In this document: positions 1-7,140 of the stretch, in pieces
How positions within the stretch are numbered: the first letter of the stretch is position 1
How the letters are laid out: every line of letters starts with the position of its first letter
From: a virus
Taxonomy: Duplodnaviria > Heunggongvirae > Uroviricota > Caudoviricetes
Length of the DNA stretch: 7,140 nucleotides
Direction: 5' to 3' (one strand)
Virus record (IMG/VR): IMGVR_UViG_2778261667_000001
Position numbers and translations under genes: made by a program
Notes under the pieces: model-generated
Seen by the model: the letters and a program-made list of their open reading frames with translations, nothing else
What the model was told of the DNA's origin: nothing
The model's database searches: none

Positions 1-133
1 GAGTAAAGGATCGATATGTGTTTTTTTATCATCAAATTTAGAAAAGTCTGCTTAAAAACCACCTTGTGTAACGTAAAGCCCCGTCAGCAATGCATTGCCC
101 ATCTGTGCACAAAGGAAAAATATTCCTAAATTT

Positions 134-167
134 CTAACTTTAGATAATTGGCATTATTTAAAGTTAG
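134..167. other. lox-like recombination site: 13-bp inverted arms flanking an 8-bp asymmetric spacer
   Basis: Seen in sequence: CTAACTTTAGATA (134-146), spacer ATTGGCAT (147-154), TATTTAAAGTTAG (155-167). The arms are inverted repeats matching at 12 of 13 positions. The 13+8+13 architecture is that of P1 loxP, and the arm matches the loxP arm ATAACTTCGTATA at 9 of 13 positions. It lies 152 bp upstream of the Cre-like gene, as loxP lies just upstream of cre in P1. Confidence 0.55.
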
Positions 168-175
168 GTTATAAT
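148..175 (+). promoter_or_regulatory. Candidate sigma70 promoter (-35 TTGGCA, 16-bp spacer, -10 TATAAT) overlapping the lox-like site
   Basis: Seen in sequence: TTGGCA at 148-153 (5/6 to TTGACA) and TATAAT at 170-175 (6/6), spaced 16 bp, oriented toward the recombinase gene at 319. The -35 sits inside the lox-like spacer and left edge of the right arm. Confidence 0.45.
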
Positions 176-318
176 CATGTGTAGATGAACAGTGTTGACA
201 TCACTAAAAATACGTGCATCGAATCAAAGGCTTGAATTTTGAAAATTAACTTATAGCTACCCTGTCATTTTTATATTTTTCGCGTAACGTCATCTGTATA
301 TAGAGGTTAAATAGTTTC

Positions 319-1347
319 ATGAGTGAATTAATTATCTCTGGCAGTTCCGGTGGTTTCCTGCGCAACATTGGCAAAGAGTACCAGGAGGCCGCAGAAAACT
401 TTATGCGGTTCATGAATGACCAGGGGGCTTATGCGCCGAATACTCTGCGCGACCTCCGGTTGGTGTTTCACTCCTGGGCGCGATGGTGTCACGCTCGCCA
501 GCTCGCCTGGTTCCCGATCTCACCAGAGATGGCCCGCGAGTATTTTCTTCAACTGCATGATGCCGATCTGGCTTCGACCACCATTGATAAGCACTACGCC
601 ATGCTGAATATGCTGCTTTCGCATTGTGGCCTTCCACCACTTTCGGATGATAAAAGTGTTTCTCTGGCTATGCGGCGCATCCGGCGAGAAGCAGCAACTG
701 AAAAAGGTGAACGAACAGGCCAGGCTATACCGCTGCGGTGGGACGACCTGAAACTGCTCGACGTCCTGTTGTCCAGGTCTGAACGGCTGGTAGATCTGCG
801 CAACCGGGCTTTTCTCTTTGTTGCATACAACACACTGATGCGTATGTCTGAAATCTCGCGAATTCGCGTAGGAGATCTGGATCAAACAGGTGACACTGTC
901 ACGCTACATATTTCACACACGAAGACAATAACGACCGCTGCCGGGCTTGATAAGGTGCTTTCTCGTCGCACTACCGCTGTACTGAATGACTGGCTGGAGG
1001 CTTCCGGGCTTCGTGAACATCCTGACGCGGTGCTGTTCCCGCCGATACACCGTAGCAATAAGGCCAGGATCACGATAACGCCCCTTACTGCACCTGCAAT
1101 GGAGAAAATATTCAGCGATGCCTGGGTGTTGCTGAATAAAAGAGATGCCACGCCGAACAAAGGAAGATACCGGACGTGGACAGGCCATAGTGCTCGTGTC
1201 GGGGCCGCTATCGATATGGCTGAAAAGCAGGTGTCTATGGTGGAGATCATGCAGGAAGGAACCTGGAAGAAACCGGAAACACTTATGCGGTATCTGCGCC
1301 GTGGCGGCGTGTCTGTGGGGGCTAATAGCCGCCTGATGGATTCGTAA
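319..1347 (+). CDS. Cre-family tyrosine site-specific recombinase
   Basis: The 342-aa ORF is nearly the same length as P1 Cre (343 aa) and aligns by eye along its whole length. Shared blocks include SWARWC, WFP..PE, LNML, VSLAMRRIRRE, RNRAFLFVAYNTLMRMSEISRIRVGDL, HTKT, WTGHSARVGAAIDMA, EIMQEGTW and LMRYLRR. Counterparts of Cre catalytic residues R173, K201, H289, R292, W315 and Y324 are all present. GAGG at 303-306 is a possible RBS. Confidence 0.9.
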   Translation: MSELIISGSSGGFLRNIGKEYQEAAENFMRFMNDQGAYAPNTLRDLRLVFHSWARWCHARQLAWFPISPEMAREYFLQLHDADLASTTIDKHYAMLNMLLSHCGLPPLSDDKSVSLAMRRIRREAATEKGERTGQAIPLRWDDLKLLDVLLSRSERLVDLRNRAFLFVAYNTLMRMSEISRIRVGDLDQTGDTVTLHISHTKTITTAAGLDKVLSRRTTAVLNDWLEASGLREHPDAVLFPPIHRSNKARITITPLTAPAMEKIFSDAWVLLNKRDATPNKGRYRTWTGHSARVGAAIDMAEKQVSMVEIMQEGTWKKPETLMRYLRRGGVSVGANSRLMDS

Positions 1348-1408
1348 ATTAAATTTCTAACATATCTTTTTAGATTGATATCTTTGCTGTAAAGTACCCT
1401 CGCCTATT

Positions 1409-1765
1409 TTGGAGGGTGCTTTGCAGAGTCAAATCACGGAATCAAGACGCTTCACGGTGGACGGTTACACCGTAACCTTCGCCGCTGGTGTTAAGAACAG
1501 TCATGCTGTCGTTGTATTCGGCATCATGACCGGGCTTGAGGCCGTCCCTGTATTTACCCTCGAAAAAAACTGGCGAAATCTGGAGGAAGCGGAAAGCTAT
1601 GTCCGGAAAGTAACCATCATTGCCGCCGAAAAACTCCTGGCCCACTATCAGGAAAATTATCGCACTATGGTCGAGAAAATTAATCTCGCTTTCACTCGCC
1701 CCACTACAGGCTTCATCGCCCCGGAGACTAATACAGGTCGCTATCCTGCAAGGGGTCGTCGGTGA
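1409..1765 (+). CDS. Hypothetical protein (about 114-118 aa, start codon uncertain)
   Basis: Intact ORF whose stop overlaps the next gene's GTG start (GTGA at 1762-1765). GGAGG at 1411-1415 sits 5 nt before an in-frame TTG at 1421, so the real start may be TTG 1421 or GTG 1457 rather than TTG 1409. No recognisable family. Confidence 0.5.
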   Translation: MEGALQSQITESRRFTVDGYTVTFAAGVKNSHAVVVFGIMTGLEAVPVFTLEKNWRNLEEAESYVRKVTIIAAEKLLAHYQENYRTMVEKINLAFTRPTTGFIAPETNTGRYPARGRR

Positions 1766-2238
1766 AAAATTATTACCCATCTCTGAATTGTTACCCGTCT
1801 TCGTATCCGGAATTGTCCGGGAAGCTGTTATCTCTTTTGGCTAAATCACCAACTGAATGGTTTAAGCCAGTCGTTATCAATCCACACTTCCTGGATTACG
1901 GATCTGTTCGCACTCGTAACGAACTCAAAAACCTGCTGGCGCATGGATTCATTCGACACCGTGCCGGGAAAGGCTATCAGTTAGCGATTTCGCCAGAAGA
2001 GGCCGTGCGGCTATTCGCATATCGTGACAGCCAGACAAAAGCACGGGTAATAGCTCAAATACTTCATAACGGCAGCACCTATGCCCGCCAGTTTGGCGGC
2101 GACACGTCGCAGTTCTTGCGGGCTGTGCGATCGCTGGAAGAACAAGGAGTTATTGAAAGTTCCTGTCTTCCTGTTCCTACCGTTCCACATATCAAACGTC
2201 GGGTTTACACCTTCACGCAGAGAGCTAAAAAACAATGA
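1762..2238 (+). CDS. Hypothetical protein, possible winged-helix DNA-binding protein
   Basis: 158-aa ORF with a GTG start overlapping the upstream stop and a stop overlapping the downstream ATG (ATGA at 2235-2238). Segments such as ELKNLLAHGFIRHRAGKGYQLAISPEEAVRLF and QFLRAVRSLEEQGVIES look like winged-helix recognition regions; this is inference from composition only. Confidence 0.55.
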   Translation: MKNYYPSLNCYPSSYPELSGKLLSLLAKSPTEWFKPVVINPHFLDYGSVRTRNELKNLLAHGFIRHRAGKGYQLAISPEEAVRLFAYRDSQTKARVIAQILHNGSTYARQFGGDTSQFLRAVRSLEEQGVIESSCLPVPTVPHIKRRVYTFTQRAKKQ

Positions 2239-2729
2239 TTTACGTAAAAGTGAAACGCCTACATCCGGAAGCAAAACTTCCAGCTTATGCCACTGCCGGA
2301 TCGGCGGCGATGGATTTTGAGGCTGTTGAAATAACACCGTGCGTCGATAGCAATGGTGCAATTTCCTCAAGCTGGTGGGTGCATACCGGGCTGGCTATGG
2401 AGATCCCGCCCGGCTGGTGTCTGAAACTCTATCCGCGTTCCGGATTGGGCTGCAAAAAACATACTCGCTTGGCTAACTGCGTAGGAATTATCGACTCCGA
2501 TTATCGCGGTGAAATCATGGCAAAACTGATTACTGATCCAGGCGGTGAAGGCGTTTGCCTCAAGCCGGGGATGGCGGTCATGCAAGGCATTTTTGAGCGT
2601 GTTGAACCGGTATCGCTGGTAGAAGTTGATGAACTCGATGAAACAGAACGAGGTGCTGGTGGCTTTGGTAGCACATCGGAAGGCCGCGTTGAAATCAAGC
2701 GTACACCGCTTCAGTACGCAAAGTTTTAA
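2235..2729 (+). CDS. dut: dUTP diphosphatase (trimeric dUTPase family)
   Basis: Matches conserved dUTPase motifs when compared by eye with E. coli Dut: PAYATAGSAAMDF (motif I), PRSGLG (motif II), GIIDSDYRGE (motif III) and RGAGGFGSTS (motif V). Motif V is followed by a short extra tail (EGRVEIKRTPLQYAKF). Start overlaps the upstream stop. Confidence 0.88.
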   Translation: MIYVKVKRLHPEAKLPAYATAGSAAMDFEAVEITPCVDSNGAISSSWWVHTGLAMEIPPGWCLKLYPRSGLGCKKHTRLANCVGIIDSDYRGEIMAKLITDPGGEGVCLKPGMAVMQGIFERVEPVSLVEVDELDETERGAGGFGSTSEGRVEIKRTPLQYAKF

Positions 2730-2743
2730 GTAGAGGAAGGATT

Positions 2744-3406
2744 ATGGCCAGCACTTTTCAGGTGTTCCCCAAATACAAATGCCACAGCATCATTCGGGCA
2801 TCGAAAATCAAAGATATTGTTATTGTCGGCAAAGCTTATGCGCCCATTTTTGGCAGCATCGAAGTCGTGGAGCCAAAAGGAATGACGCTTCGTGTTGATG
2901 GTGTGTTCTTGGAAAAGTTCCGACCGCAAATAGGAGGATATCTCGTCACTGCTGAAAATGGTTATCTGGTCTATGTGCCAGAGAAAGCATTTGAAAAATG
3001 CTATAGCCGGGTTAACGACGCCTCCGAAAATGGGGTATCGCTCAGCATTGAAGGTCACAATGGGGTGACATTCATTACAGCCAGGGACGTAACTATTTCT
3101 GCTGGCGGTATCGCTACTCTACAAGAAGAAATCGACCTTGAAGCAGCCGACTTTTCTGACGCGCTGATGTGGATGAAGGATGGCAAGAAAGTTGCTCGAC
3201 GCGGGTGGAACGGCGAAGACCAATTCTGCTGGCTGGTTCCTGAAGGACAGTACCCGGCACGAATGGAAGCCATTAAGGGATATTTCCCCGGCGACCTCGT
3301 TCCGTATGGTGCTTATTTCGCCTTAAAAAATGCACAAGGTGTAGTTGTTCCGTGGGTGCCTTCAGTTGGCGACCTGCTGGCCTGTGACTGGTTTGTTGTG
3401 GAGTGA
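2744..3406 (+). CDS. Two-domain hypothetical protein: unknown N-terminal domain fused to a C-terminal DUF2829-like (Tad2-type) domain
   Basis: 220-aa ORF with a good RBS (GGAAGGA at 2732-2738, ATG at 2744). The C-terminal ~80 aa (about 3161..3403) read ALMWMKDGKKVARRGWNG...PYGAYFALKNAQGVVVPWVPSVGDLLACDWFVVE. This matches the pattern I recall for small phage DUF2829 proteins (GKKV.R.GW near the start, D.LA.DW at the end). The N-terminal ~140 aa is unrecognised. Confidence 0.75.
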   Translation: MASTFQVFPKYKCHSIIRASKIKDIVIVGKAYAPIFGSIEVVEPKGMTLRVDGVFLEKFRPQIGGYLVTAENGYLVYVPEKAFEKCYSRVNDASENGVSLSIEGHNGVTFITARDVTISAGGIATLQEEIDLEAADFSDALMWMKDGKKVARRGWNGEDQFCWLVPEGQYPARMEAIKGYFPGDLVPYGAYFALKNAQGVVVPWVPSVGDLLACDWFVVE

Positions 3407-3412
3407 TTTAAC

Positions 3413-4219
3413 GTGGAAAATACCAAGAACATTCAATATCGCCTGCGTAACGGCCTGCTGGTGGATGTTAACGCTGACATGTCTCTGCCGCTCGACACGA
3501 TTGAACGCACTATCATGGCGTATCTTGGCTTTAATGAAGAGCTGAATGAAGAGCATGGCGTAGCCATATGGAGCGATGCAGACAACGGCGCTCGCCGTTA
3601 TATCACTGCCAGAGGCAAAGACTACTCTCTGGAAGAACTGTTTACCCTTGCGCAGTCTTTCGAATGTGTAGCATTGGATCTGTTTAATGATCCTGCTATA
3701 GCGCAACGACTTATCCGCGAGCTTGGGCTGTCCGTTACCCCAATCATCTTTAGAAATGGCAGCTTGACTGGCACATGGCGCGTAGAACGCATCTCAAACT
3801 ACCTTCCATATAACCGACAGTTAAATGGAGTAATCTCCGGCGTTAATCAGCCCGTAGCGTGTGAAAATGTAAACCTAGTTGTCGCTGTTTTGGCAACCGC
3901 ATGTCGCGTTATTGGTTTGACTAAACAGGCATTTATTCATTTCCCAAATGGTGCAGATGGTAGCGCAGAGATTATCGCGTGTGATTTCGAATTTACCTGG
4001 ATGCTACGAGAATATCTGGACAAAACAGTATTCCGTGCCGAAGAACTGGATATGTATATCACGTCAACGATTCCTGATGATGTGCGAGCTGAAGCAATCG
4101 CTACAGCCAGGGCTAAATGCCGTGCGGCGATTGCAGAACAGGCCAAAGAAGAACAGTCCGATGAAGTCGCGGCAGATGTGGAAGCAGAGGTAGCGGAGGA
4201 TGCTGATGCTGACGCCTAA
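3413..4219 (+). CDS. Hypothetical protein with a strongly acidic C-terminal tail
   Basis: 268-aa ORF. The first start codon in frame is GTG at 3413, two codons after the upstream TGA and in the same frame, with no obvious SD, so the start is uncertain. The last ~30 aa (EQAKEEQSDEVAADVEAEVAEDADADA) are very acidic. The 3' end overlaps the next gene by 20 nt. Confidence 0.65.
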   Translation: MENTKNIQYRLRNGLLVDVNADMSLPLDTIERTIMAYLGFNEELNEEHGVAIWSDADNGARRYITARGKDYSLEELFTLAQSFECVALDLFNDPAIAQRLIRELGLSVTPIIFRNGSLTGTWRVERISNYLPYNRQLNGVISGVNQPVACENVNLVVAVLATACRVIGLTKQAFIHFPNGADGSAEIIACDFEFTWMLREYLDKTVFRAEELDMYITSTIPDDVRAEAIATARAKCRAAIAEQAKEEQSDEVAADVEAEVAEDADADA

Positions 4220-5306
4220 AAACATCACCGAATTACCAGAGTGGAGAGAGCTGGTAAGCAAATATAGCCATGACTGGGCATTAGCAGCAGAAGAGTTGAT
4301 GGGTGTTAAGTTAACCCACCAGCAAAAGCTAATTGTTGAGGCGATTCAACAAAAAGGTTCAGCAGTCAGCGTCACCACTCCTGAAGGGATAGGCCAAAAG
4401 ACGGTTATGGCTATAATTAGTATTCTTTATACAATCCTGATGCCTGAGTCTAAAACGGTCATTGTTTCCCCAAAGTTCTATAATTGTCGCAGGCAAGTTA
4501 TCCAATACATAAGTACGTATTGGGATAGAGTCAGTAACAGAATCCCATTGCTGGGAGAATATTTTAAAGTCGACGGAAACGGCATCACTCATCGTTACCG
4601 GGAATATTGGGGCTGCGAAATTAAGCCATATCACCGAAATTATGAGGAAGGTTTCGGTGGATATTATGCTGAACATCTTTTAATCATTGTTACGGAGGCG
4701 GCTCTTGCTGGCGATCGGCTATTCAGCATGTTAAGAGCATCGTTAGTAAGTGACGATTCACGTATACTTTTAATGTCCGCTCCTTCAGAGGAGGAGCATG
4801 GACACTTTTACGATTCCCATCATGGTCGTGCAAAATCTGAAGAAAATCCATGTGGTATTTATACAGCCATCAAGTTGAACGCAGAAGATACCCCCATTAT
4901 TTCTCAAGGTTATCTTGATAACATTGCAGAAATATATGGTGGTAAAAATAGCGATTACTACCGTCGTATGGTTCTTGGTGAGTTCCCTGGTATTCGGGAG
5001 GCTGTTCTTGAATCAGATATGCCGAAAACAATGCGCTTTACGATGCATGATGGTAGTGAATGGACAATGCCATTACTAGTGATAGCCCGGCATCATGCAC
5101 AGCACCACGCCAAAAAACATGGCGTTACAACATTAGAGTGGTTGAAATCGCACACCATTCCACTCTTCACTGCAGATCACAATGCTATCGTTGAGTGGGC
5201 AAAAACAATTCCGTGGGAGAATGTCGCTGAATACGCCAACATGCTAAAACCGCCGAAAGACAGGCAAGAAATTAGCTGGCTGACAGCAGAAAAAATCATC
5301 GAGTGA
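4200..5306 (+). CDS. Terminase-large-subunit-like ASCE ATPase domain protein (no nuclease domain, divergent Walker motifs)
   Basis: 368-aa ORF; ATG 4206 is the more likely start because GGAGG at 4195-4199 sits 6 nt upstream of it. Motif order and spacing fit a terminase ATPase domain: Walker A-like PEGIGQKT (aa 61-68), Walker B-like LLIIVTE (aa 160-166), coupling motif-like LLMSAPS (aa 190-196), and YYRRMVLGEFPG near aa 253-264. The Gly before the Walker A Lys is Q and the Walker B Asp is T. The remaining ~100 aa are too short for an RNaseH-like nuclease domain and show no acidic triad. Confidence 0.7.
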   Translation: MLMLTPKNITELPEWRELVSKYSHDWALAAEELMGVKLTHQQKLIVEAIQQKGSAVSVTTPEGIGQKTVMAIISILYTILMPESKTVIVSPKFYNCRRQVIQYISTYWDRVSNRIPLLGEYFKVDGNGITHRYREYWGCEIKPYHRNYEEGFGGYYAEHLLIIVTEAALAGDRLFSMLRASLVSDDSRILLMSAPSEEEHGHFYDSHHGRAKSEENPCGIYTAIKLNAEDTPIISQGYLDNIAEIYGGKNSDYYRRMVLGEFPGIREAVLESDMPKTMRFTMHDGSEWTMPLLVIARHHAQHHAKKHGVTTLEWLKSHTIPLFTADHNAIVEWAKTIPWENVAEYANMLKPPKDRQEISWLTAEKIIE

Positions 5307-6799: not shown

Positions 6800-7093
6800 T
6801 TATGGTTGAATCCAGTTATCTTCAATAGCAATGCTCAATCTTTGTAACCATTCTGCTAATTTCAGCATTGCTTCTCTTTCGCTTAAACCACACGGAAAAT
6901 CATCAAGCGATATTGTTGGCTTGAAGTTTCCCAAATTATCCATTTCAACGGTCAGATTTTGCTCCAGAACGGTATTTCTTACGCGGCTATTGTGCCGAAG
7001 CAAATATACTGAACGTGATTTATTGGTTTTGTGGTCGAACGTATATTCGGTAAGTATCATCTGGCTTCCGCCATGATTATTACCGCGCCACAT
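6800..7093 (-). CDS. Hypothetical protein (86-97 aa)
   Basis: Intact ORF at the head of the minus-strand cluster. Possible starts are ATG 7093 (GGGG 5 nt upstream) or ATG 7060 (GGAAG upstream). No recognisable family. Confidence 0.5.
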   Translation of the reverse strand: MWRGNNHGGSQMILTEYTFDHKTNKSRSVYLLRHNSRVRNTVLEQNLTVEMDNLGNFKPTISLDDFPCGLSEREAMLKLAEWLQRLSIAIEDNWIQP

Positions 7094-7140
7094 AATTACC
7101 CCGTGTTAATTGAAATTTATCTATTGATCTTCACCTTTAT

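Follow-up and report, generated by a model that had tools for sequence, protein, structure and literature searches.

The window analysed here, the whole stretch of 7,140 nucleotides, contains a gene for a Cre-type tyrosine recombinase and, directly upstream of it, a palindromic site. A first-pass annotation had read this arrangement as a candidate new Cre/lox-type pair, and the question raised by the locus is whether gene and site form a new recombination system or belong to one already described. According to our analysis, this is almost certainly the rox-dre segment of a D6-like phage-plasmid, in which the gene at 319..1347 is a natural allele of Dre and the site at 135..166 is its rox target. 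Dre/rox, which happened to be the comparator that the annotation named first, is what the candidate pair turned out to be: a system that is already known, common in E. coli and its relatives, and widely used. The Dre/rox system of Escherichia phage D6 reportedly goes back to work by Sauer and McDermott in 2004 (GenBank AY753669 and MF356679). Since that year it has been a standard orthogonal recombinase tool, with wide use in mice, zebrafish, yeast and bacteria.

The features on which the argument turns are the following.

1..134, no strand assigned: left (c1-proximal) flank of rox, of a different haplotype from D6
135..166, no strand assigned: rox, the 32-bp Dre target, TAACTTTAGATAAT-TGGC-ATTATTTAAAGTTA; the palindrome is one base longer on each side, to 134..167
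135..148, plus strand: left rox arm, with A-to-G at window position 143, which is arm position 9 and position 10 in loxP-style 13-bp numbering
149..152, plus strand: asymmetric 4-bp core TGGC, which gives rox its direction
153..166, plus strand: right rox arm, identical to canonical rox
148..175, plus strand: sigma-70 promoter-like site, a consensus match only, pointing at dre
319..1347, plus strand: dre, encoding the 342-aa Dre tyrosine recombinase; ATG start, 339/342 against AAV84949

The recombinase and its gene

When the window was compared with phage genomes by megablast, it matched Escherichia phage D6 at 94-95% nucleotide identity, and the D6 features beneath the match are annotated as 'dre: tyrosine recombinase' and 'region of crossover (rox) site for Dre recombinase'. 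In BLASTP, a check that the first-pass annotation had proposed, the window protein was compared with D6 Dre (AAV84949). The two share 339 of 342 residues without gaps (99.1%), and the changes from Dre to the window protein are D227E, V228A and T253I. The proposed novelty does not survive this comparison, as the protein is 99.1% identical to Dre and the site differs by a single base from rox as annotated and published. The annotation had itself envisaged a protein essentially identical to a characterised Cre-family recombinase with a known but different target; the near-identity is there, whereas the known target is the same site as in the window. Its broader description, that of a Cre-type recombinase directly preceded by a heterospecific palindromic site of its own, still applies to the gene at 319..1347 and the site at 134..167.

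The product scores 59.9 bits against the Pfam family Phage_integrase (PF00589, cut-off 27.1 bits) and aligns with the sequences of Cre crystal structures over residues 22-341 (E = 6.5e-68), yet it is diverged from P1 Cre, with 40% identity in a MAFFT alignment. Both the kinship and the divergence had been recognised in the first-pass annotation, as had the retention of the Cre catalytic residues. The active site is intact: R175, E178, K202, H290, R293, W316 and Y325 are aligned, unchanged, with Cre R173, E176, K201, H289, R292, W315 and Y324, which are all seven active-site positions, and this numbering agrees with that given for Dre by Chuang et al. (PMC4777119). A search of the PDB for a structure of Dre found none, the matches being Cre or Cre variants.

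Relative to D6, the coding sequence has 48 nucleotide differences, corresponding to 45 synonymous and 3 nonsynonymous codon changes, a proportion that points to a working gene under strong purifying selection. Among the retained residues are R44, P259 and K263. Cre positions 43, 259 and 263, which are R, P and K in Dre and Panto, face the three bases by which loxP can be told apart from rox and pox (Karimova et al. 2016). Judged from its sequence, this Dre allele is expected to recombine rox and not loxP. The protein is encoded at 95% identity or more by 100 PLSDB records, the best of which matches at 99.4%; the exact allele is therefore absent from PLSDB, and no record in the collections searched encodes exactly this protein with D227E, V228A and T253I.

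The upstream site

Window positions 134-146 (CTAACTTTAGATA), 147-154 (ATTGGCAT) and 155-167 (TATTTAAAGTTAG) carry the letters reported in the first-pass annotation, which had described them as a 13-8-13 inverted repeat 152 bp upstream of the gene. The 13-nt arms of 134..167 are complementary at 12 of 13 positions, and an inverted-repeat search returned 15-nt arms at 134-148 and 153-167 (93% complementary) with the 4-nt core TGGC between them. Letters, place and spacing were thus right, but the parse was not, since rox is defined by 14-bp arms and a 4-bp asymmetric spacer (PMC4777119). In the same work it was argued that the functional crossover region of rox may be near 8 bp.

Canonical rox is TAACTTTAAATAAT-TGGC-ATTATTTAAAGTTA, and the window site shares 31 of its 32 bases, with core and right arm exact and A9G in the left arm. 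In D6 the site (AY753669 4909-4940) reads TAACTTTAAATAATTGGCATTATTTAAAGTTA and in the window (135-166) it reads TAACTTTAGATAATTGGCATTATTTAAAGTTA, the sole difference being the A to G at 143. The D6 string is the rox sequence of the literature (PMC4777119), and PMC3082901 shows it together with the bases that flank it natively. The 7140-base window contains a single copy of the site. A chance palindrome was considered and rejected: 0 of 200 dinucleotide-preserving shuffles gave a match to the site with three or fewer mismatches, and the 14-nt half-site is present in the window at just the two rox arm positions.

For comparison, 36 Dre-encoding loci were taken from IMG/VR, and site and protein were tabulated for each; these loci carry L numbers below. 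One of them (L036) has no upstream sequence and was omitted, so that D6 and 35 IMG/VR loci provide 36 comparison sites, or 37 when the window is counted. The 32-bp site and the dre ATG are 152 bp apart in the window, and the same distance is found at 32 of the 36 comparison sites, with 151 or 153 bp at the remaining four. The first-pass annotation had suggested such a look at the site in related genomes.

Comparison with known recombination systems

D6 and the window have in common the protein (339/342), a 32-bp 14-4-14 site with TGGC core, the 152-bp spacing, the downstream genes orf2, orf3 and dut, and an element of the plasmid-prophage type. They differ by three conservative or polymorphic substitutions in the protein and one left-arm base in the site (A to G, 143). 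The left flank is only 63% identical, and its haplotype is accompanied in relatives by a c1 allele with about 89.5% identity to D6 C1. Gene content also differs past position ~4176.

P1 Cre/loxP shares with the window pair its fold family, its active site and an alignment along the full length. In both, the recombinase gene lies just 3' of a palindromic site, beside the c1 immunity region of a plasmid prophage, and the presumed roles are cyclisation and dimer resolution. The two systems are separated by a protein identity of 40% and by the build of the site, 13-8-13 with ATAACTTCGTATA arms in loxP and 14-4-14 in the window; moreover, P1 has 418 bp between site and gene, with cra in between, against 152 bp here. 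The match of the arms to loxP at 9 of 13 positions, given in the first-pass annotation, is borne out against the P1 lox arm TATACGAAGTTAT, with 4 of 13 positions different. No match to loxP with three or fewer mismatches was found in the window, and Cre and Dre have been reported not to cross-react (PMC3082901).

Panto, from Pantoea sp. aB, is a Dre-like recombinase 52% identical to Dre; the arms of its site, pox, are one base off those of rox, and either recombinase acts on rox as well as on pox (Karimova et al. 2016). Panto is a far more distant protein than the window recombinase and pox has a different spacer, whereas the window holds Dre proper.

Our account of the mechanism is modelled on Cre, following the summary in PMC4777119, and on published work on Dre. 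On this account, each 14-bp arm would be bound by one Dre monomer, and two rox sites would come together in a synapse with four monomers. Tyr325 would cut at the edges of the central region, strand exchange would proceed in order through a Holliday junction, and the asymmetric TGGC core would set the direction of the site. We infer that this allele recombines the rox variant of the window. By analogy with P1 Cre/loxP, its role in the element would be to cyclise the terminally redundant infecting DNA and to resolve plasmid-prophage dimers. The P1 record annotates Cre as 'cyclization recombinase'.

The host element and the neighbourhood of dre

The order c1-proximal flank, rox, dre, orf, orf, dut is the one annotated in D6 records. 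The c1 gene itself lies outside the window, which includes 134 nt of the c1 side. Positions 151-4176 are 94.4% identical to D6, the genes dre, orf2, orf3 and dut match at 94-95% nucleotide identity, and collinearity ends near 4176. Downstream (3') of dre are homologues of D6 orf2 and orf3, a dUTPase (PF00692) and a protein with a Tad2-like domain.

In PLSDB, 507 records match part of the window and 24 cover at least 80% of it at 92-95% identity; the latter are almost all plasmids of about 90 kb, non-mobilizable, from E. coli, Salmonella or Shigella. Among complete E. coli genomes, 518 of 5426 match part of the window, overwhelmingly on plasmids. The first-pass annotation had supposed a plasmid-like prophage as host element, and this fits the matching records, which are ~90 kb and mostly non-mobilizable D6-like plasmids.

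Other observations were made in this neighbourhood. The plus-strand gene at 2744-3406 encodes a 220-aa protein with a C-terminal Tad2-like domain (Thoeris anti-defence 2, PF11195/DUF2829; 79.5 bits). Its D6 counterpart, orf114, is shorter and is annotated as similar to the C-terminal half of an SJ46 protein. Lying beside the dUTPase gene, 2744-3406 is a possible anti-defence gene. Just past the end of D6 collinearity (~4176), a plus-strand ORF of 368 aa (4200-5306) has no Pfam match; it matches PHROG 5902 (unknown function) strongly and the terminase large subunit family phrog_2 weakly (E = 3e-10), and it shares 20 nt with the end of the preceding isaA-like ORF (3413-4219). The last ~330 bases of the window (6812-7140) are 97.9% identical to phage P1 records and not to D6 at that location, which shows that the window is itself a P1/D6 mosaic. 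A 15-nt inverted repeat at 1387-1426 (CTGTAAAGTACCCTC ... GAGGGTGCTTTGCAG, loop of 10 nt) lies between dre and the ORF that follows, whose TTG start at 1409 it overlaps. A terminator scan made no call at this repeat, which may be a terminator or a regulatory hairpin.

Natural variation in Dre and rox

The three substitutions of the window protein are recurrent natural polymorphisms at variable positions. T253I is found in L003-5 and L022, all with canonical rox, while E227 occurs in the L026 group and A228 in L031, L032 and L035. The G at arm position 9 is present in 11 of the 37 sites (window and L032 counted). In L008 and L012 it stands beside a Dre identical to that of D6, so the G is not paired with a changed protein.

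Two readings would make more of this variation. A new Cre-family recombinase/site pair, with a specificity unlike that of all characterised systems, could appeal to the mere 40% identity to Cre, to arms unlike loxP at 4 of 13 positions and to a window without a loxP-like site. However, a protein 99.1% identical to Dre with a site one base off published rox leaves little room for it, and the substitutions and the rox G allele are polymorphisms that assort independently of one another; we regard this reading as extremely improbable. A new specificity arising by co-variation of the three substitutions with the G was rejected, with G occurring beside D6-identical Dre and T253I beside canonical rox. 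As the G allele is found next to an unaltered Dre and the substitutions recur in nature, nothing points to a new specificity. The other reading takes G143 as a weakened half-site, comparable to engineered left-element/right-element lox mutants, with recombination reduced or biased. The change affects one arm only and falls within the three-base patch that distinguishes rox from loxP, at loxP-style position 10; because of this location, G may modestly reduce the affinity of the left half-site. A harmful base would not be expected in 11 of 37 sites and in three dre lineages (99%, 89% and ~80% at the nucleotide level) with the gene always intact, and Dre also recombines pox, whose arm is one base off that of rox (Karimova et al. 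2016). We therefore think that a weakened half-site is unlikely, and our preferred reading is that of a natural Dre allele with its rox target.

More distant relatives show further changes in the site. In L035 (1316-1347; IMG/VR 3300009011_000012), whose recombinase is a Dre relative at 70% identity, both rox arms are exact and the core is TAGC, not TGGC; this is a natural spacer variant, which may be incompatible with canonical rox. The central bases of rox are also altered in L021 (1317-1348; ...AATGGGGATT...), where Dre is ~99% identical to D6 Dre, and in L032 (1318-1349; ...TTGGAGTT...). The changes in these two loci hit positions found by Chuang et al. to govern rox compatibility (PMC4777119). 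L037 and L038 (both at 1318-1349; IMG/VR 3300013827_000026 and 3300025735_000294) encode Dre relatives of 55-56% identity and carry TAACTTTATATAAT-GTCA-GTTATATAAAGTTA at the upstream position where rox would lie. Arm position 9 is altered on both arms, so that the palindrome is preserved, and the core is different; the c1 homologue upstream is only 35% identical to D6 C1. From these sequences, L037 and L038 may represent a distinct Dre-like pair.

A promoter-like site and a homology break at rox

The promoter-like site overlaps rox. Its -35 hexamer, TTGGCA (148-153), sits on the core, the 16-nt spacer is made up of the right arm and 3 further nt, and TATAAT (170-175) follows as the -10 hexamer; TTGGCA-16-TATAAT matches 11 of 12 consensus positions. 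When 1..318 was shuffled 5000 times, 71 of the shuffles had an equally good match. Of the 37 sites, 35 have TATAAT unchanged, the two exceptions being the 55%-identity relatives L037 and L038. It is kept in the L026-29, L030-32 and L035 lineages, where the preceding 3 nt and the following ~20 nt are quite different. A literature search for earlier reports of promoter activity in rox returned nothing relevant. Control by the immunity repressor was also considered. The P1-type C1 operator consensus, ATTGCTCTAATAAATTT, had no match of three or fewer mismatches in the window, which thus offers no evidence for C1 control of dre.

The left flank of rox tells a different story from the gene. Identity to D6 is 63% over the 134 nt on the left side of rox and 93% over the 152 nt on its right. 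Window 1-330 is matched by 116 PLSDB records, of which only 25 cover at least 80% of it, and the partial matches, among the matches listed, begin at 130-135, or at 152 in records linearised at rox. Left-flank haplotypes track c1 alleles: the D6 type goes with alleles 97-100% identical to D6 C1, the window type with ~89.5%, and others with ~80% and ~70%. The G at 143 is found in 9 of 10 sites with a window-type left flank (window counted) and in 0 of 17 with a D6-type flank. In L030, a window-type flank with G is joined to a dre only ~80% identical at the nucleotide level. Across loci L001 and L003-L035, homology between relatives stops exactly at rox, with different c1 alleles joined to different dre alleles. 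The left half-site with its flank thus reassorts with the right half-site and dre, and the pattern is consistent with natural rox crossover between D6-like phage-plasmids.

It is tempting to give both patterns a function. The position of the hexamers suggests a possible second role for rox, within the dre promoter, where bound Dre could act as a repressor of the gene that encodes it. In this proposal, which is compatible with our main explanation, rox would also be the operator of the dre promoter, with the core as -35 and the right arm as spacer, and Dre bound to it would obstruct RNA polymerase and so curb its own production. The 11/12 match, rarely equalled in the shuffles, and a TATAAT that persists amid diverged neighbouring bases speak for such an operator. 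However, the promoter is predicted from a consensus match only, promoter-like sites in 1..1500 do not exceed the shuffle expectation (1 found, shuffle mean 1.9), and the most distant relatives, L037 and L038, are without the -10 hexamer; we hold the operator to be possible, with the balance somewhat against it. Combining it with the homology break yields a dual role, in which the core and right arm of rox would serve an autoregulated dre promoter and Dre crossover at rox between co-resident D6-like phage-plasmids would reassort c1 immunity modules relative to the remainder of the genome. If true, this would account for the break lying exactly at rox and for the G allele travelling with one c1 haplotype. 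The same break pattern could be produced by homologous recombination ending at the conserved rox site, and the dual role seems to us doubtful.

Implications

As a discovery, the pair matters little. Its practical worth lies in recording how a heavily used tool varies in nature, with three tolerated substitutions in Dre and a common natural variant of the left rox arm, inside the patch that separates rox from loxP. A rox-borne promoter, if active in bacteria, could matter to users of the tool through unintended transcription from rox sites. Finally, relatives at 94%, 89%, 70% and 55% identity, with sites either conserved or altered symmetrically on both arms, offer ready material for studies of specificity in this family of recombinases.
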